50,462 nt of DNA from a virus. Its lineage: Duplodnaviria > Caudoviricetes. Below the pieces are notes generated by a model. It did not search any database. It was not told the DNA's origin and worked only from the letters and a program-made list of their open reading frames with translations. Shown here in pieces: positions 6,764 through 35,966 of the stretch (position 1 is its first letter; each line of letters starts with the position of its first letter). Location: positions 1 to 50,462 of the IMG/VR virus record IMGVR_UViG_3300035670_000309; one strand, 5' to 3'. A program made the position numbers and the translations under genes.

Positions 6764-8242
6764 TCACATCATGGATTTAAGAGTTGTGTTAAGGCGCTGT
6801 AACGCCTCGGAGATTTCAGCTTCCCGCTGATCACTCCCCCCAACATCCCGTTGCGAGGATTTGAGCGCCGCCACTATTGCTTTCGCAGCGGACGCGGTAA
6901 AAGAGGCACCGTCCCGAAGCGCGGCCTCAAGCTGGCGTTCGGTCAGGACAGAAATTTCATCCACTCGAAACGACTTACCAAACGGGCTTTCGCGGTCCAT
7001 CTTGCGGTAATACCGTTCGATATTTGCGATGACCCCGGCCCGGTCAGAGTCTGGGATATCTACGCCACCCCGTGCGCCACGCATGGCGGCAGCGGCGGCA
7101 AAGACGGCACGGGGGACGGCCTTCAATTCGCCGTCGATCACGTCCGCGATGCCCAATTTGTAGGCACCGAAATTCTCGTCATTCTCGGAATCGTACCAGA
7201 GGAAGGCGTTGCGGTATTCGTCGCTCGGCTCCTCTTGGGAGTCAGACCATTCGCGCACACGGCGCTCGGCGGCTACACCGTCCCACGGGCGACTCTCATC
7301 GGCAAGCGGAAGATCCTGATACGGGACCACGGTCTTCATGCCAGTGATCTTTGCTGCGGTATTCATCGGGATCGTTACCAGCGAAATTTCATAGAGGGTC
7401 ACCGCTTTCAGCTTGCGCACCCCGTTTTCAAATTCGCTGTCATCGGGAACGTAACCGATGGACATTTCTGAAATAGACCCAACGCGCATTTGCGGAATAA
7501 CGCGCTTGGTAACGAAATCGTCAGCTTTCGGGAGGATCCCCTTGACGTAAAGGCCAATCGAATCCTCGCGCATTTCAACGAAAGATCCCACCGGCTCATG
7601 ATGCTTATGCTGCCAGAGGATCGGCAGTAGCTTCCGGTAATCGGTGCCCATGATCGGGGTTGCGTTCTGCGCAAGATTAAGCAAGGTGGCCTGATACGCG
7701 CCCTGTTCCACCACGTCGCCACCACGGTCCACGTTTCCGAAAGTGCTGGCATACCCTTCGAACACCCAGAATTCACGCTCCTCGGTCAGCGCCTTCAGTT
7801 CGAAAGAAAACGTGGTGAAATTCTTACGCATTCCGGCACCCTCTGAGCCACTTACCGAGATATTACCATCATCTTCTGTAATATCAATTGATTTTGCCTC
7901 GTCTATCTTGTCAAGCTCTTTTGTTTTTCTTTCGGCCCACGCTTTTCCGGGATCGCCACCCCAGAGAAGCCACGCTATCAGGCCGTTAGACGGATAGCCC
8001 GGCTCTCCTTCGCGGAAGCCATCTGCCTGCTTATCCACTTCATGCCGCGCAAAGAAAGAGCGCATCCTGCGCACGGTCGAGGCTGAAAGCTCCTGCCGAT
8101 TGACAAGCTGACGAGCGCGGGCAATCCCTACATCAGTCCCGCCACGCCCATGTTCGCGACGAAACTCAAGTCCGCGCTCTGCCGCCTTCTGCATTTCAGC
8201 GGTCGGCTTCAGGTCAATCTCTTGTCCGCGATAGGCAGCCAT
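6764..8242 (-). CDS. HK97-family prohead protease with extra N- and C-terminal domains
   Basis: FEGYASTFGNVDRGGDVV..GA, ILWQH, MSIGY and LYEISLVTIPMN motifs. Confidence 0.9.
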   Translation of the reverse strand: MAAYRGQEIDLKPTAEMQKAAERGLEFRREHGRGGTDVGIARARQLVNRQELSASTVRRMRSFFARHEVDKQADGFREGEPGYPSNGLIAWLLWGGDPGKAWAERKTKELDKIDEAKSIDITEDDGNISVSGSEGAGMRKNFTTFSFELKALTEEREFWVFEGYASTFGNVDRGGDVVEQGAYQATLLNLAQNATPIMGTDYRKLLPILWQHKHHEPVGSFVEMREDSIGLYVKGILPKADDFVTKRVIPQMRVGSISEMSIGYVPDDSEFENGVRKLKAVTLYEISLVTIPMNTAAKITGMKTVVPYQDLPLADESRPWDGVAAERRVREWSDSQEEPSDEYRNAFLWYDSENDENFGAYKLGIADVIDGELKAVPRAVFAAAAAMRGARGGVDIPDSDRAGVIANIERYYRKMDRESPFGKSFRVDEISVLTERQLEAALRDGASFTASAAKAIVAALKSSQRDVGGSDQREAEISEALQRLNTTLKSMM

Positions 8243-8296
8243 ATCACTTGCCCCGGATCAGTTTGCACAGAATGCAACGGCGGATGATTTTTCGGA

Positions 8297-9160
8297 TCAT
8301 GGAGACACCTCATAGACGGAAAGGCAGCGGCAGTTACAGATGATTGATGCCGGAGCGCCAAATAACCCATCGGCGGGGAATCGCAGACGGTACCCACCCA
8401 CGCTAAACTTTTCCTCATTCAGCACTTTTTGACGATTGGCCGCGACGTGCGACGGTCTAACGCGACGGTCCCCTTGCGTCACCCATGTTTTCGTCGTCTG
8501 ACGTTCAGGACCAACAGCACGATAAACGGGCGGAGCGCCTTCCAGTCTAGTGCGTCTACTGCTAAGGGCAGACGGAACCTTGCCGCTCATAGCTTCCGAG
8601 ACGATGTATTTTGTGGATTCCGCACCGACCTGCGTTTCAGTGGTCGAAATAGTCGGAACGCGGGCCATCATCTTTCGCAAAAGGTAGGTCGCAGCAAGGG
8701 CGGCAATCGATGCAAGGTCTTGGTCCTCGCTATCAATCCGCGCTTGCGCCAAAGCCTCGCGCATTTCCCGGTCTGTCGTGGCTGTGATGATATCAGCGTC
8801 TTCCTGCGACTTGTCCAGCGCCCACGCGCCTAACGCCTCATCGATCAGGTCGTTAAGCTCCCGCTCTTCGTCGGCGGTCAGATCGGCCTTTGTCGCCCAA
8901 CCCTGAAAAGACTTGGCCCCGGACGCAAGCGCGACGTCCTGCCGGAAAGCTTTCTGGCACCTGCGGAATTGCACCCTAAGCGCGGCTTCCCAGTCATCGC
9001 GGTAACTTTCGGCCCCCGGCGACGAACCAGACCGGGCCACAGCGCGCCGGTATTCGTCCGCCTGCGCTCGAAAAAGCTTGCGAATCTCAGGCGAAAAGAC
9101 GCGCTCTAGGCGCAGCTTCTTGCGCAGGTCATCCGCAGCGATTTGCGCAATGGTTGGCAT
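8297..9160 (-). CDS. Minor head protein (Mu gpF / SPP1 gp7-like)
   Basis: KTWVTQGDRRVRPSH...FPAD...CNCRC. Confidence 0.85.
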   Translation of the reverse strand: MPTIAQIAADDLRKKLRLERVFSPEIRKLFRAQADEYRRAVARSGSSPGAESYRDDWEAALRVQFRRCQKAFRQDVALASGAKSFQGWATKADLTADEERELNDLIDEALGAWALDKSQEDADIITATTDREMREALAQARIDSEDQDLASIAALAATYLLRKMMARVPTISTTETQVGAESTKYIVSEAMSGKVPSALSSRRTRLEGAPPVYRAVGPERQTTKTWVTQGDRRVRPSHVAANRQKVLNEEKFSVGGYRLRFPADGLFGAPASIICNCRCLSVYEVSP

Positions 9161-10491
9161 CAGGTCAGAGCCTCATTTTCAGGCAGAGCCGGGGCCGTCT
9201 GATAGTCTGCCTCGTCGTCTGTGTACAAATCTGTACCGACCGGTACAAGATTGGCCGGTTGATACAGAACGTTTCCACCTTGGATCGGCTCGCGGCCCGG
9301 CAGCAGGGAACGCATCTCGTTTACGGTTTCAATGCCAAGGGTCCGCCGCTTCTCCAGCTCATCCAGCATACGGGACCGAAGCGCGGTAATCTGTTCCGGG
9401 TCGTATGTCAATGACCATTGACGCGGATCCAACCCGAACCGGGGCAGGAGCGCCAGACCAAGCCCAGACATAAGCGCCTGATATACTGGGAGCGCGGCGT
9501 TATCGTAGAAATGATAGGTCGCTGTCTCCATGTTATTGAAAGTGCTGGCGTCTGTTGAGATCAGCGGCAGTGGAATCTTATATCGCTGATAGATGGCGCG
9601 CCCCGCAATGGCGTCTAGCTCCGCAAAATCCATGTCGCGGTTGTTCTGGCCGAACTCCTGAAACGTGACGTCAGTTCCAGAGACGCCAGTCACCCGACCA
9701 GCGTTTGACGCGCCGGAAACCTGCTCATTGAGGGCCCGGATGCGCTCGCGAAGCTCCTCCTGCGTTGGGTCGTCCCCAAAAGTGGCAACAAGTGTCAGCT
9801 TTCCGCCGTTTTGCAACAGAGAAAGGTTATGAACACGGGCCTGAATCTGCTGTTTCGCCTCCAAGAGCGCGGCCTGAAGGGGGCTGTCTGAATACCAGTT
9901 GTCCGCCCGAGACGAAAAAGAGCGAATGCGGAAAAACTCTTTCAGGCTGCCGTCGAGATATCGGGCCATCCGGTCACGAATGTCACGCCGGTAAGTGCCT
10001 GCGCCCTCGCCAATGGTGACCATATACATGGTCGGATAACGGCTGTAACCGTCGCCGGATGGCGTCACGTCAAACGGCTTGATCGCGTAAATCTCTGACG
10101 GTCTGGAGCGGATGTTGCCGATCATCGCTCCGTGGCTGTCGCCGGTCAGCAGGTAATGCGCTGCCAAGGATTTGATGAACTGCTCCCGCGTATCGAACGG
10201 GTTTGGGCGCTCTAAAAACGCGCAAGGCTCGGAACTTTCGACGAATTTACCATCCGGCCCCATCAGGACGGGCGGAATTGCTTTGACTGCGTCCGAGATC
10301 AGATCAACCGCGCTGGCAACGCTGGCGACGGTCGCATAAAACCGCATCGCGTCCGTGTATCCAAGATATCCGCCGTTGCCGCTCAGGATGTAGTCGAGAA
10401 ACGGAGAGCGCCCGGAAGGAATGCCAACTGGCACAATCTGTTTCAGCTGAACCGGCGCTTCAGTTTTGCGCCCAAACGGCCAAAGTTTCAT
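9160..10491 (-). CDS. Portal protein, HK97 family
   Basis: L.RPNPF.T, LLTGD, SPL.AA, DMDFAE, STFNN.E and TVNEMR motifs; follows the terminase. Confidence 0.95.
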   Translation of the reverse strand: MKLWPFGRKTEAPVQLKQIVPVGIPSGRSPFLDYILSGNGGYLGYTDAMRFYATVASVASAVDLISDAVKAIPPVLMGPDGKFVESSEPCAFLERPNPFDTREQFIKSLAAHYLLTGDSHGAMIGNIRSRPSEIYAIKPFDVTPSGDGYSRYPTMYMVTIGEGAGTYRRDIRDRMARYLDGSLKEFFRIRSFSSRADNWYSDSPLQAALLEAKQQIQARVHNLSLLQNGGKLTLVATFGDDPTQEELRERIRALNEQVSGASNAGRVTGVSGTDVTFQEFGQNNRDMDFAELDAIAGRAIYQRYKIPLPLISTDASTFNNMETATYHFYDNAALPVYQALMSGLGLALLPRFGLDPRQWSLTYDPEQITALRSRMLDELEKRRTLGIETVNEMRSLLPGREPIQGGNVLYQPANLVPVGTDLYTDDEADYQTAPALPENEALT

Positions 10492-12509: not shown

Positions 12510-13060
12510 TTGGGGCCAGCCGCTGCAAACGGTCTGGCCCCGAGACTGCGGTTACTGGGAGAATTCCCGCAGTTGTGATGCTGAATATGTACCAGATGGT
12601 ACGGATCAAGTCAACATCATCTGATATTCCCCCCAACTGTTACCGGGTCAGCCCTCAAAACCGGATATCTCATCGGGAAGGACCCCCGCCCCTGTCTGGT
12701 TGCCCAATCGCGCCAGACGAGAATGCAGGCATATGAACGGCACGAAGTATAGTACCCACCTATCAGGGGATATTTGATAGAGCCGGGACGGCTGGCCCAC
12801 GTAACGGGTACCTGCTGGATAGGTGAGTGGAATAAGATTGGCCCTCAGCGCGTTGCAGGCCCTGTTATTGGGGATGCCGGGATACGCGGGGGTCTTCTAT
12901 TGTCTAATGGGATGTAGTGCGCCAATAGGTTGAAACAATTTGTAATTGCTCAATCAGACGATTAGCATTGATTGTATTTATCAGATTAATCAAATATGCC
13001 TCTGCGATGAATACGCAGTCGATCCCAAGCAAAAAGCCCCACCTTTCGGAAGGGCTTTCT
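12510..13060 (+). ncRNA. Candidate ~550-nt structured non-coding RNA
   Basis: No ORF of 60 aa or more on either strand. Series of hairpins, with a promoter at the 5' end and a terminator hairpin at the 3' end. Confidence 0.4.
13030..13060. terminator. Probably bidirectional intrinsic terminator
   Basis: aaaaagcccc-acctttcggaa-gggctttct; the T-run is longer on the minus strand. Confidence 0.7.
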
Positions 13061-13097
13061 GATCAACACGGAGAGAAGGAAAAGAGGAGGTGAGAAC

Positions 13098-13126
13098 ACT
13101 CTATTGATTTCTGTCTGGGGAGTCAA
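13098..13126 (-). promoter_or_regulatory. Sigma70-like promoter TTGACT-N17-TAGAGT
   Basis: -35 at 13126-13121 and -10 at 13103-13098, beginning 3 nt after the last CRISPR-like repeat. Confidence 0.6.
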
Positions 13127-13129
13127 CCT

Positions 13130-13297
13130 GTCTTTACCAAAAATCGCGAGTAACCGCATGTGGCGGCGTATGCAACACTACCTGTCGTTACCCTCCAAAT
13201 CGCCGGTAACCGCATGGGAACCATTGCAACCCGCTGATTTGCTTGGGTAATTCGTCGCTTTGATCTCACAATCTCGCGACGGGCCGGACATCGGCCC
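13130..13297 (-). CRISPR. CRISPR-like mini-array 2: structured leader, two repeats (33 and 31 nt) and a 23-nt spacer
   Basis: Repeats CATGCGGTTACCGGCGATTTGGAGGGTAACGAC (13216-13184) and CATGCGGTTACTCGCGATTTTTGGTAAAGAC (13160-13130). Spacer AGGTAGTGTTGCATACGCCGCCA. Leader hairpin GGGCCG-ATGTC-CGGCCC. Confidence 0.65.
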
Positions 13298-13326
13298 AAA
13301 TCAGAGAGATTTTACTTCAGGCCCGA

Positions 13327-13542
13327 CTACTTAGCGCCGGTGATAGGATCTTTTTTCGAGGCGCTTTCAGCCCGCGCAATTTCCAACGCCAGACCGTTAG
13401 CGGCAACAACACCCAGCCCGACATAGCCCAGCTTAGAGGCATCTTCCGGCGCAATATTACCATCAACAGAGGCATTCAGAACCCGGTGCAGGGTGTTCGC
13501 AACGTCGCGGGTCTGGTCGTGCATTTCCCTGAAATCGTTCAT
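13327..13542 (-). CDS. Small hypothetical protein translationally coupled to the TnpB-like gene
   Basis: 71 aa; its ATG overlaps the TnpB-like stop (ATGA). Confidence 0.7.
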   Translation of the reverse strand: MNDFREMHDQTRDVANTLHRVLNASVDGNIAPEDASKLGYVGLGVVAANGLALEIARAESASKKDPITGAK

Positions 13543-14819
13543 TTCGCCTTTTCCTTTCGCATCAGCTTCTTTGCCACTTTGGCTGTTTTGACAATCTCGT
13601 TGCCAAGTTCGACAACGTGAGCGGTCTTTTTCTCTGCCACGGTGCCGCCTGCCTCCGTGATTTTGTCTTTAATCAGCCCGACGAACATCGCGGGAGCCAT
13701 GCTCAAGACAAAACGGTTAAACCCTGCTTTCCACTTCACCTTTGCGCCGTGTTCTTTCCGATCACCGGCACCGGTCGCCGTCGCATCCTTGATGCTTTTC
13801 GGCTGGTAGATCGTCACTTCGCCAAACTCGCGGGCGATAGCTGCTGACAGATTATGCAGGCGGTTGGCCCGCTGGTTAGCCTGTCGCGCCTCAAGCCGCG
13901 CCTTCATGGTCCGCAGCTTTTTATAGCGGTTGCTGCCCCGCTTGCACCGCGCCATGGCCTGCTGGATTTGGCCCACGCAGTCAACTTCTTCTCTGGAATT
14001 CCGCAACTCACTGTCGTCACCCTGCGCTTCATGGGCTTCCGCAGGCATCCCGACCACAGCATAGACCACTACGTTCTTGTCGTCACCCCGCATTTCCTGG
14101 GCTTCCGTAGGAGCTTCCCCGTTAAAGCCCTGAAAGTTAAGGGTGATTCGTCCGTCAGAAGCGATAGAAACCGCAACCTCAGGACCGGCGAGACATTCGC
14201 CGTCAACGATCTTCGCAAGCTGCGTCATCAGGTCAAGCCCGATCACGCCCTTCCGAGTCCCAGCCACACGCCGGGATTCTGTTTCAACCGCGACGGAAAG
14301 AAACCACTCTCCGCCACGGTAAAGAATTTCACCGTTCTTGACCGTCCCACCATTCGGCAGGCATCCGCGCATTTTGATCCATCCCTCAATAGACTGGATC
14401 CGAACACGGCCTTTTTTCTCCCCAATTTCGCAGTCCCATCCAGCCTTTGGTTTTCCTAGCGGGAATCCTGAGTAGTACTCTGAACCTTGGTAGCGAGGAA
14501 ATCCAGACGACGCTCCATCTCCTTTTTTGGCGCGAGCAAAGAAAGCTTTATACGCTTCATCAAGGCGCTTCGCCGTCCCGTTCATCGACGCTGAACCTAG
14601 AGCTTTGTAATCATGGTCTACGGCACGAAGCTTAGTGTTGTTGGCAGTCTGATCGAAATACGTAAGGCTCTTTCCACACCGTTCGAAGGCATCAATCCGT
14701 TGCTCCAGAAGAGCATTATACAGGCGGCAATGCAGACTCCGCACCACATCAAGCCGGGCGGCTTGCGTCGCATTCGGATACAGCTTGAAGTTATAGCGAC
14801 GAATAATCATCGCGGCCAC
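13539..14819 (-). CDS. TnpB/Cas12-like RNA-guided protein, probably nuclease-dead, with an in-frame internal array insertion
   Basis: RRYNFKLYPNATQ..., CRLYNALLE, RLDEAYKAFF...GFPRY, RuvC-I VIGLD, KRGSNRY...LHNLS and KAGFNR motifs. RuvC-II reads VTIYQP instead of ..VEDL, and there is no C-terminal CxxC zinc finger or DRD. Confidence 0.85.
   Translation of the reverse strand: MAAMIIRRYNFKLYPNATQAARLDVVRSLHCRLYNALLEQRIDAFERCGKSLTYFDQTANNTKLRAVDHDYKALGSASMNGTAKRLDEAYKAFFARAKKGDGASSGFPRYQGSEYYSGFPLGKPKAGWDCEIGEKKGRVRIQSIEGWIKMRGCLPNGGTVKNGEILYRGGEWFLSVAVETESRRVAGTRKGVIGLDLMTQLAKIVDGECLAGPEVAVSIASDGRITLNFQGFNGEAPTEAQEMRGDDKNVVVYAVVGMPAEAHEAQGDDSELRNSREEVDCVGQIQQAMARCKRGSNRYKKLRTMKARLEARQANQRANRLHNLSAAIAREFGEVTIYQPKSIKDATATGAGDRKEHGAKVKWKAGFNRFVLSMAPAMFVGLIKDKITEAGGTVAEKKTAHVVELGNEIVKTAKVAKKLMRKEKAK
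14013..14201 (-). CRISPR. CRISPR-like mini-array 1 embedded in the TnpB-like coding sequence: leader, two 33-nt repeats and a 33-nt spacer
   Basis: Repeats CCTACGGAAGCCCAGGAAATGCGGGGTGACGAC (14111-14079) and CCTGCGGAAGCCCATGAAGCGCAGGGTGACGAC (14045-14013). Spacer AAGAACGTAGTGGTCTATGCTGTGGTCGGGATG. Leader hairpin GGCGA-ATGTC-TCGCC. Confidence 0.65.
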
Positions 14820-14822
14820 CGA

Positions 14823-15131
14823 TCACAGAGAAACAGAGAAGGAAGCAAAGCCTTCATCAGCAAACTTATTGCGACGAGCGGCAATCGCTGCATCAGACGC
14901 AACCGGCAGGTATCCGGTTCCATTCAGCGTGAAGAACCGGCCACCAGAGCAGAACTCATCAGCGCGAACGCAGATCATGCCGTCTTGAAACTCGTTAAAG
15001 TCGGAAGCCTTAGCAGACCCGGCAATCTCTTTCATCGCGACAACCTTACGACCACGACCCGGCTTTACCAGAAGAAACAGGTTATCGCAAACGATGTTGG
15101 AGATTTCGAAATCGTAGCTGATCTTTTCCAT
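14823..15131 (-). CDS. Hypothetical protein; first gene of the TnpB-like operon
   Basis: ATG at 15131 follows the shared promoter/leader cassette. The stop lies 3 nt before the TnpB-like start. Confidence 0.65.
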   Translation of the reverse strand: MEKISYDFEISNIVCDNLFLLVKPGRGRKVVAMKEIAGSAKASDFNEFQDGMICVRADEFCSGGRFFTLNGTGYLPVASDAAIAARRNKFADEGFASFSVSL

Positions 15132-15212
15132 GATGCGGCCCCTTGCCGTTTCTGCTGCGGCCCCTGCCGCTGCTGATGAAACTGTTATATCGGCTTTTGA
15201 TCGTCTCGTCAC
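15129..15212 (-). promoter_or_regulatory. Promoter GTGACG-N17-TATAAC with a repeated 5' leader (copy 1)
   Basis: Leader cagcagcggcaggggccgcagcagaaacggcaaggggccgcatcATG is nearly identical to 16594-16640. Confidence 0.7.
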
Positions 15213-16413: not shown

Positions 16414-16596
16414 TCACGCCTCCGCAAAGGTTTTTTGCGCAAGGCGGATCAGATCTTCAAACTGAGAGCAGATCTTTTCATTTTTCTCGGCAATCGCAAC
16501 CATGATCTCATGAAACGAAACTTCATGCTTTTCAGCCAGAAACTTCATGGTTTCGACGGCGACGGTTGCGGTGAAGTGAGCGATTTCTTTGTTCAT
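16414..16596 (-). CDS. Hypothetical protein
   Basis: Starts directly after the repeated promoter/leader cassette. Confidence 0.65.
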   Translation of the reverse strand: MNKEIAHFTATVAVETMKFLAEKHEVSFHEIMVAIAEKNEKICSQFEDLIRLAQKTFAEA

Positions 16597-16676
16597 GATG
16601 CGGTCCTTTACCGTTTCTGCTGCGGCCCTTGCCGCTGCTGTAAGACTGTTTTACCTAAAAAAGAGAAGCGCGGCAA
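16594..16676 (-). promoter_or_regulatory. Promoter TTGCCG-N17-TAAAAC with a repeated 5' leader (copy 2)
   Basis: Near-identical to 15129-15186. Confidence 0.7.
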
Positions 16677-35889: not shown

Positions 35890-35966
35890 GCTCCCTTAGC
35901 TCAATTGGATAGAGCATCGGGATTCTACCCCGACGGTTTGCGGTTCGAGTCCGTGAGGGAGCGCCA
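35890..35966 (+). tRNA. tRNA-Arg (anticodon TCT)
   Basis: Cloverleaf GCTCCCT...AGGGAGC-G-CCA, D arm TAGCTCAATTGGATAGAGC, anticodon arm TCGGG-ATTCTAC-CCCGA, GGTTCGAGTCC. Confidence 0.92.

Follow-up and report, generated by a model that had tools for sequence, protein, structure and literature searches.

TldRs are nuclease-dead descendants of TnpB that act as RNA-guided repressors, and some of them are encoded by phages (Wiegand et al., bioRxiv 10.1101/2023.11.30.569447; background also in PMC13622181). They are described in these sources as working mainly with a single guide RNA (gRNA) encoded downstream. The locus considered here belongs to a temperate phage of the Caudoviricetes, IMG/VR record IMGVR_UViG_3300035670_000309. 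The window, meaning the whole stretch of DNA that was analysed, is the complete virus record of 50,462 base pairs (bp), with direct terminal repeats. Its minus strand, to which all coordinates of the locus refer, contains an open reading frame (ORF) at 13539..14819 for a TnpB homologue of 426 amino acids (aa). Two cassettes, each a leader followed by repeats, lie inside this ORF and downstream of it. With a probability of about 0.6, as judged from sequence evidence, both leaders are copies of one structured RNA module, the guide-RNA scaffold of this predicted nuclease-dead protein.

The locus resembles the TldRs in several respects. Its protein is encoded by a temperate phage outside any transposon, it has a C-terminal truncation and an apparently inactivated RuvC domain, and a putative guide RNA module (cassette 2) is found downstream of the gene. 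This is a likeness of function, drawn outside a phylogenetic comparison with the described fliC-, oppF- and csrA-associated clades. Unlike the TldRs described in those sources, the window has a second scaffold and a multi-unit repeat/spacer array, both in frame inside the effector ORF. In addition, no fliC, oppF or csrA neighbours are seen at the loci studied here. The window spacers have no promoter target in the searches run, and the sole spacer match, from an Elstera homologue, falls inside a portal ORF.

Another close relative is the omegaRNA (or reRNA) used by TnpB proteins of IS200/IS605 elements, such as those in structures 8exa and 8h1j. An omegaRNA overlaps the 3' end of tnpB. The phage protein shares the TnpB fold, and its putative RNA shares a scaffold of about 130 nucleotides (nt), a guide directly 3' of it and an overlap with coding sequence. 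It differs in the place of the scaffold, which is found mid-ORF, in a loop that follows the RuvC-I strands, rather than at the 3' end. Moreover, the 3' part of the scaffold is tandemly repeated together with the guide, there are no transposon ends and no TnpA, and the nuclease is predicted to be dead.

A third point of comparison is provided by type V CRISPR systems with a trans-activating CRISPR RNA (tracrRNA), namely Cas12f and V-U. As in these, there are near-identical direct repeats of 34-38 nt, unique spacers of similar length (22-32 nt) and an anti-repeat that pairs with the repeat. No match to Cas1 (PF01867) was obtained anywhere in the phage, in a search that did match control genomes; this search was aimed at Cas1, and cas2 was not searched. 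Many V-F and V-U loci likewise lack Cas1 and Cas2. In contrast to type V arrays, the array is translated, with a unit length tied to multiples of three (66 nt in 56 of 63 arrays), and it lies inside the effector gene rather than downstream. The effector is also predicted to be inactive. Translation applies to cassette 1 and to the arrays of 63 of 155 family proteins; cassette 2 and one of the homologous copies are non-coding.

LaTranC is among the matches of the 426-aa protein, both in a profile search of the PDB and in Foldseek. TranC intermediates are reportedly grouped with type V-like "omegaRNA arrays". In PMC10691335, such arrays have the appearance of an omegaRNA segment duplicated in series, as do the arrays described here. 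A literature search found no description of a guide array within the reading frame of a TnpB-like gene; it did not cover supplementary tables, and those of PMC10691335 list non-mobile and inactivated TnpB clades and could mention this one.

Both leaders contain the same elements in the same order, as a sequence-only reading of the window had claimed. The first element is a hairpin, GGCGA-ATGTC-TCGCC at 14201-14187 in cassette 1 and GGGCCG-ATGTC-CGGCCC at 13297-13281 in cassette 2. It is followed by a shared element, GTCCTGAGGTTGCG at 14184-14171 and GTCGCGAGATTGTG at 13280-13267. The last element is GACGAATCACCC at 14152-14141, 29 nt ahead of repeat 1 (14111-14078), and GACGAATTACCC at 13256-13245, 28 nt ahead of repeat 1' (13216-13183). 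The TCACCC of the first leader is complementary to the GGGTGA of both cassette-1 repeats, and the TTACCC of the second leader to the GGGTAA of repeat 1'.

Cassette 1 (14213-14012) lies wholly within the 426-aa ORF, leader and both repeats included, which the sequence-only reading had not mentioned. Cassette 2 (13311-13129) is non-coding. Cassette 1 consists of a scaffold, formed by the leader and repeat 1 (14080..14213; covariance-model scores 134.2 and 142.9 bits), and an in-frame mini-array (14012..14111) of repeat 1, spacer 1 (14077-14046) and repeat 2 (14045-14012). The two repeats are 85% alike at a spacing of 66 nt. In cassette 2, the scaffold of leader and repeat 1' (13182..13311) is followed by the stretch 13129..13182, with a putative guide 1' (13182-13161) and a degenerate repeat 2' (13160-13129). 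Repeat 1' is 65% identical to the reference repeat, and a 20-nt repeat pair (13216-13197 and 13160-13141) is 90% identical at a spacing of 56 nt.

The structure is supported by six copies from four genomes or metagenomes. Two of these are the window cassettes. One comes from L003, a contig of an Elstera metagenome-assembled genome (MAG), one from L083, a JGI metagenome contig, and two from L165, a prophage region of genome G205. All of them share a common fold that consists of hairpin 1, a composite stem-loop 2, and a 3' part of the leader that pairs with repeat 1. Hairpin 1 has a stem of 5-6 bp and the loop AUGUC, which is replaced by ACACG in L083 and by AUGCG in the second L165 copy. The 3' part of the leader, about 25 nt long, pairs in two helices with almost all of the repeat, and TCACCC/GGGTGA is the outer helix.

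In cassette 1, hairpin 1 (loop ATGTC) occupies 14202-14186 and stem-loop 2 occupies 14185-14150. One half of the anti-repeat, 14146-14140, pairs with repeat 1 at 14089-14083, and the other half, 14135-14124, pairs with it at 14105-14094. The corresponding parts of cassette 2 are the hairpin at 13297-13281, a shortened stem-loop 2, an anti-repeat that includes TTACCC at 13250-13245, and repeat 1' at 13216-13183. The earlier proposal of a 6-nt pairing segment was right in that this segment pairs with the 3' end of the repeat, but it was too short, as the anti-repeat spans about 25 nt and takes in nearly the whole of repeat 1. The proposal of an omegaRNA- or tracrRNA-like scaffold is supported by the TCACCC/GGGTGA helix, which is kept in L003, in L083 and twice in L165. 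It is also supported by the adjacent protein, a TnpB homologue and thus of the kind that uses such RNAs.

The leader with its first repeat folds with a minimum free energy of -53.1 kcal/mol in cassette 1 (z -3.98), -49.0 in cassette 2 (z -3.85) and -57.9 in L003 (z -2.97). For L165 the z-score is -2.82, from an incomplete folded range. RNAalifold predicts 34 pairs from five copies, 18 of them with a compensatory change. In an alignment of five copies (A3), 86.6% of the cells are paired, compared with 33-49% in controls in which the sequences were slid, and 19 pairs are changed on both sides, compared with 1-7. In the alignment of all six (A5), the values are 87.1% against 34-51%, and 23 of 34 pairs against 4-7. 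For neither alignment does any of 500 shuffles reach any of these measures.

Covariation in homologues had been named beforehand as the check for the helix between leader and repeat. This is helix 4 of A5, in which 91.7% of the cells are paired, three of the six pairs are changed on both sides, and G-U wobbles are present. Wobbles are frequent throughout the structure, and only when it is read on the sense strand. The hairpin-1 stems GGCGA/TCGCC, GGTGG/CCACC and GGGGG/CCTCC encode GECLA, GGCPT and GGCPS, so that the pairs are kept and the residues altered. In the helix between leader and repeat, the informative changes are found in L165, where leader ATC becomes ATT together with GAC to AAC in both repeats. 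The same pair change occurs in cassette 2, which is non-coding.

Covariance models can also be used to search for copies on which they were not built. Model R1, from five copies, finds the sixth, at L165 1111-1243 (minus strand), with 40 bits and a rough E-value of 3e-9. This copy is non-coding and lies just past the small ORF that follows the gene, which is the position of cassette 2 in the window. It is followed by 35-nt repeats at a spacing of 66 nt. Model R2 was built only from the four cassettes inside ORFs, those of window cassette 1, L003, L165 and L083. It recovers cassette 2 at 13182-13311 (minus) with 41.1 bits and an E-value of roughly 1.3e-10, and L165 1108-1243 (minus) with 37 bits and roughly 2.2e-9. 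The next best unrelated match in 68 kb scores 11.9 bits. Thus, the claim that the two leaders are one shared scaffold holds under a test that is blind to cassette 2. Rfam contains nothing relevant for the window, either at the gathering threshold or at E <= 10.

The 426-aa protein belongs to the TnpB (IS605 OrfB) superfamily by both sequence and fold. Its Pfam matches, HTH_OrfB_IS605 and OrfB_IS605, are both weak. NCBIfam assigns guided_TnpB with 111.3 bits (cut-off 100), PHROG assigns "transposase" with E 1.6e-36, and a PDB profile search finds ISDra2 TnpB, 8h1j, with E 3.8e-23. The AlphaFold2 model has a mean confidence score (pLDDT) of 69.6, and its top match in Foldseek is TnpB 8exa (E 2.9e-17, TMt 0.54), with Cas12f next. 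Residues 218-273, the segment encoded by the array, have a pLDDT of 24-38, by which the model indicates a disordered loop.

Parts of the catalytic machinery are absent. An alignment with true TnpBs (A1) shows that the family retains the RuvC-I Asp of GLDL. There is no acidic residue where TnpBs carry the RuvC-II motif (for instance, VFEEL), and the family stops short of the CxxC...DRD segment, so that the zinc finger and RuvC-III are missing. Likewise, Pfam PF07282 is absent from the window protein family members P0001-P0010. Neither the intact RuvC D-E-D triad nor the zinc-finger (TNB) domain that characterise TnpB is thus present, and the protein is predicted from its sequence to be nuclease-dead. 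None of the marks of a mobile TnpB (several copies, tnpA or transposon ends) was found. The gene is single-copy in the 50-kb phage, and no tnpA-like ORF was found near it in the ORF list of the window or with Pfam.

Arrays like that of cassette 1 are widespread in the protein family. The closest relatives, P0002-P0010, are 35-82% identical to the window protein. Their greatest divergence lies in an insertion behind the RuvC-I strands, where a 12-13-aa peptide occurs in 0-4 repeats. Searching 1.84 billion representatives with a profile yields 428 proteins at E <= 1e-30, and internal repeats occur in 63 of the 155 examined. The period is 22 aa in 56 of these, 24 aa in four, and 12, 18 and 20 aa in one each. 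The unit of the window array, 66 nt, corresponds to 22 codons. In each array, a block of 12 aa is nearly the same from unit to unit, and another of about 10 aa is unrelated. When successive units are compared across the 56 proteins, the 12 repeat positions have an identity of 0.68-0.90 and the 10 spacer positions one of 0.05-0.17, a contrast somewhat inflated by the choice of phase, which was anchored to maximise it.

All five differences between the two 34-nt repeats of the window are non-synonymous. In L003, three 38-nt repeats are identical at every position, with unrelated 28-nt spacers, and are followed by two diverged repeats. Unit lengths are 66, 66, 60 and 54 nt, each divisible by three. 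Identical repeat DNA next to free spacers, together with differences that are only non-synonymous, argues for selection on the nucleotides and not on the peptide.

Variation among near relatives marks the border between scaffold and guide. Contigs of four runs were compared with window positions 12900-14900. In relatives that are about 90-95% identical, the leader and repeat 1 are retained, and the agreement breaks off precisely where repeat 1 ends on its 3' side (14077 onward). Run X7 skips 13994-14077, and in run X5 13993-14077 is exchanged for 70 other letters. A contig of run X6 diverges at 14028 into sequence that holds another copy of the repeat end. The proteins of the close relatives have one repeat, compared with two in the window (alignment A6). 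In cassette 2, X7 has 229 letters in place of 13127-13179, that is spacer 1' and repeat 2'. Finally, a 151-nt X6 contig matches only 13181-13297, with five differences, and diverges on both sides; the match begins and stops where the scaffold is predicted to. In omegaRNAs, it is such an abrupt change, from conserved scaffold to variable 3' sequence, that tells scaffold and guide apart (PMC10691335).

One spacer has a candidate target. When the Elstera array is compared with its own MAG, a single match rises above noise (27 of 30 nt, E 2.4e-4). It contains an exact, repeat-proximal run of 22 nt that starts with the final base of the repeat and continues through 21 nt of spacer 2 from its first letter. 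The match lies on another contig of the MAG, within a lambda-family portal gene (Pfam E 1.5e-80) that adjoins capsid/protease and D5-type primase genes. The protospacer is inside the ORF, which belongs to another element of the MAG, and when read in guide sense it is antisense to the portal mRNA. This portal has no homologue in the window. Two other matches were rejected as targets: an 18-nt match between L165 and G205 (E 0.044) falls in a repeat rather than a spacer, and a 24-nt match of the trailer on L164, another contig of the Elstera MAG (E 0.009), is not repeat-proximal and was taken as chance.

The scaffold reading thus draws on five computed lines of evidence: TnpB homology with catalytic loss, covarying structure, the array architecture of the family, the boundary between scaffold and guide, and one spacer-protospacer match. 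The mechanism it suggests is as follows. A module of about 130 nt would comprise hairpin 1, composite stem-loop 2 and the pairing of the anti-repeat with repeat 1, and a guide would lie directly 3' of each repeat. Since further units of repeat plus guide follow, the anti-repeat could pair with any repeat, as a tracrRNA does. Copy 1 is in frame and encodes a predicted disordered surface loop; because it is inside the effector ORF, the effector mRNA would double as guide precursor. Copy 2, which is non-coding and lies downstream of the dead-TnpB gene and its coupled small ORF, would be a separate, short gene. The dead TnpB would bind the guide RNAs, be directed by them to complementary DNA and block it without cutting, as TldRs or dCas12 do. 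A likely purpose would be the silencing of genes of competing phages or of the host. Transcription, processing, protein binding, guide length, the target-adjacent motif (TAM) and repression are at this point inferred.

A wider proposal goes further and is correspondingly more tentative, its chances being somewhat below even. It holds that this is a phage-borne family of dead TnpBs with a true guide array in its own reading frame, so that one mRNA would be both messenger and precursor CRISPR RNA (pre-crRNA). The anti-repeat and repeat 1 would form an omegaRNA-like scaffold. Units would be gained and lost without Cas1-Cas2, under a 66-nt rule that preserves the frame, and the guides would be directed against structural genes of rival phages or satellites.

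If true, the family would be a living intermediate between the single-guide omegaRNA and the CRISPR array, and an extreme case of a sequence that is both protein-coding and functional RNA. It would show how a one-guide omegaRNA could turn into a multi-guide array without adaptation genes, the 3' half of the scaffold being duplicated together with the guide. It would also mean that a guide array can sit within the coding sequence of a protein, overlooked by CRISPR finders and gene callers alike. Further implications would be the use of RNA-guided DNA binding by phage against phage, and programmable repressors that are naturally multiplexed and, at about 400 aa, very compact. How TnpB-type systems acquire new guides would become testable.

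Several observations weigh against the scaffold reading. The structure was derived from the same six sequences that support it, the sample is small, and the E-values of the covariance models are rough. L083 folds no better than shuffled sequences (z +0.6). A plain pairwise alignment of the two cassettes scores 172, which is reached by none of 1000 shuffles, but seven unrelated windows in the top 10 of 1212 genome windows score 173-190. Under stricter scoring, 36 of 1000 shuffles are at or above the score of the cassette pair. Similarity alone is therefore insufficient for the shared-scaffold claim, because the plain alignment lies within the genome background.

Conservation of the leader and repeat is also partly forced by coding. 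The hairpin and the GTCCTGAGGTTGCG-type motif of cassette 1 partly coincide with codons for the conserved residues G-x-C and DGRI. In the copies inside ORFs, four of the six outer-helix pairs follow from conserved residues (Ile-[Thr/Ser] and Gly-Asp), because GACGAATC is dictated by DGRI codons and GGNGAY by G-D codons. Distant members have a similar repeat peptide, roughly P-x-[DE]-[AS]-x4-G-[DE]-x-[GR], and the repeat block may have a role as a peptide.

Targets are scarce as well. Only one of about six Elstera spacers is matched. Window spacers 1 and 1' have no match longer than 11 nt in their own genome, the array regions match GenBank phages only at E >= 0.4, exact 18-21-mers have no match in IMG/VR, and the L165 arrays match nothing significant in G205. 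Moreover, the mRNA self-processing reported for active TnpB (PMC10278001) could not apply unchanged with a dead RuvC.

Among the alternatives, the one that survives best, unlikely as it is, holds that the structure acts only in cis on the mRNA. It might serve autoregulation of the dead TnpB, through its translation or stability, or attenuation or termination before the late genes; there would be no trans-acting guides, and the spacers would be unconstrained linker. This would suit a copy 1 that lies within the mRNA itself and a copy 2 that ends in a terminator-like hairpin with a promoter-like site next to it. The failure of the window spacers to find a target in the searches run also agrees with it. 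Yet such an element has no need of tandem repeat/spacer units, whose period is a constant 66 nt in 56 of 63 arrays, or of a sharp boundary between scaffold and variable sequence at the end of the repeat, and it leaves the portal-gene match unexplained. The homologous proteins, too, are a family defined by the use of such RNAs as guides, as in TnpB and Cas12.

The next alternative, also improbable, is an element that acts at the level of DNA. It would consist of single-stranded DNA hairpins or of iteron-like binding repeats, as in an origin, packaging site or recombination site, inside a gene. The lambda origin, for instance, lies inside gene O. The locus is about 0.7 kb upstream of the terminase genes, and its 66-nt unit equals 3 x 22 bp, a phasing like that of iterons. 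Hairpins of single-stranded DNA would tolerate G-T wobbles too, but the wobbles are strand-specific and become A-C mismatches on the other strand. The structure also travels with the TnpB-like gene across contexts (a CI-like repressor in Elstera, NinB/exonuclease in L165, terminase in the window), the spacers vary freely in close relatives, unlike those of iteron arrays, and there is no tnpA nearby.

The least probable alternative takes the repeats for short linear peptide motifs in a disordered loop, cassette 2 for a decaying duplicate fragment, and the likeness of the leaders for ancestry or chance; although the repeats are always in frame, distant members have a similar motif, cassette 2 is readable in the frame of cassette 1 (58-aa ORF, 13123-13299) and the plain alignment stays within the background, this fails to account for a non-coding copy at the same position in two phages, both recognised by a model from coding copies, for the ends of the conserved X6 block at the predicted RNA ends 13181 and 13297, for stem pairs that covary while residues change, for repeat differences that in the window are all non-synonymous, and for Elstera repeats identical at every codon position among unrelated spacers. 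No rival explains all four of the following jointly: scaffold copies outside coding sequence, a unit of fixed length, an abrupt onset of variability, and wobbles confined to one strand.

Read on the minus strand, small ORFs come first in the region, followed by the TnpB-derived, TldR-like ORF (13539..14819, "dTnpB"). Next is a 71-aa ORF (13327..13542), whose ATG overlaps the dTnpB stop codon (ATGA). After it come cassette 2, promoter-like and terminator-like sites, about 600 nt of non-coding sequence, and the small and large terminase genes (12421-10558).

Small ORFs in the same position are found in two homologues, with 74 aa on L164 (568-792) and 86 aa in L165 (1245-1505). In L165, as in the window, the start codon overlaps the dead-TnpB stop codon, and the 86 aa are counted from that overlapping ATG. 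Mutual identity among the three is weak, at 13-25%. The window ORF has no match in Pfam, PHROG or NCBIfam; the L164 ORF, scanned against Pfam only, has no match there. The L165 ORF has a sub-threshold match in Pfam, the only database scanned (16.9 bits, cut-off 27). The product may be a partner protein of the dead TnpB.

A promoter-like sequence, TTGACT-17-TAGAGT, stands directly after cassette 2 (13126-13030, minus). It is followed by about 60 nt that contain CACCTCCTC, and then by a hairpin and T run. In lambdoid phages, a late promoter is followed by a short terminated leader. The layout after cassette 2 resembles this, but it could also be a small RNA. Repeat 2' is also rated a weak intrinsic terminator (13158-13145 and a T run). 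In L003, 2912-2945 is a hairpin with a T run (ATGCGG-N8-CCGCAT-TTTTT) just before the promoter-like region of the Elstera gene, and it shares CATGCGGTTA with the cassette-2 repeats. This hairpin is probably a terminator. The idea that the cassette-2 repeats are a mere promoter-upstream or terminator motif shared with L003 (CATGCGGTTA) was rejected: repeat 1' belongs to the scaffold, although repeat 2' is terminator-like.

The homologous loci differ in completeness. L003 ends within its array, and the rest of the gene is on L164. L083 ends within its array at the contig end. L165 is a full-length member with NinB/exonuclease surroundings. Downstream of its second scaffold, at 845-1032, there are further tandem repeats with a period of 81-86 nt. 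The gene-bearing Elstera contig, L169, carries phage early genes. A CI-like repressor (HTH_3 and Peptidase_S24) at 8215-9243 (plus strand) is upstream of the dead-TnpB gene (about 10178) on the same strand, a placement that, from the sequence, would fit expression in the lysogen. C5 and N6 DNA methylase genes are located further upstream of this repressor.

Members of the family are rare, and single in each of the genomes searched. Whole-genome profile searches find one among 17 genomes of the order of G001 and one among 301 of the order of G205. A class-level search finds three of 401 genomes at E <= 1e-40 (G001, G205 and G255), of which G255 proved to carry an ordinary TnpB, and a phylum-level search finds one of 401, the centre genome itself. 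In IMG/VR, no family member came up with two protein-pattern scans or with one degenerate DNA pattern, and a candidate there (L167) was rejected as a chance match. Among GenBank phages, blastn found nothing and tblastn only ordinary TnpBs. Scans of GTDB and JGI were swamped by ordinary TnpBs, the family members there being L003 and L083 only; L011, L018, L019, L021, L025, L030 and L166 were rejected as ordinary TnpBs.

Two further features were noted elsewhere in the phage. A 52-nt direct repeat, 88% identical, is present at 15124-15175 and 16589-16640. Each copy ends at the ATG of a small minus-strand ORF and holds GGGGCCGCA twice. The repeat has the look of a 5' leader or operator common to two early genes. 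Finally, the phage carries a tRNA-Arg(TCT) gene at 35890-35966.

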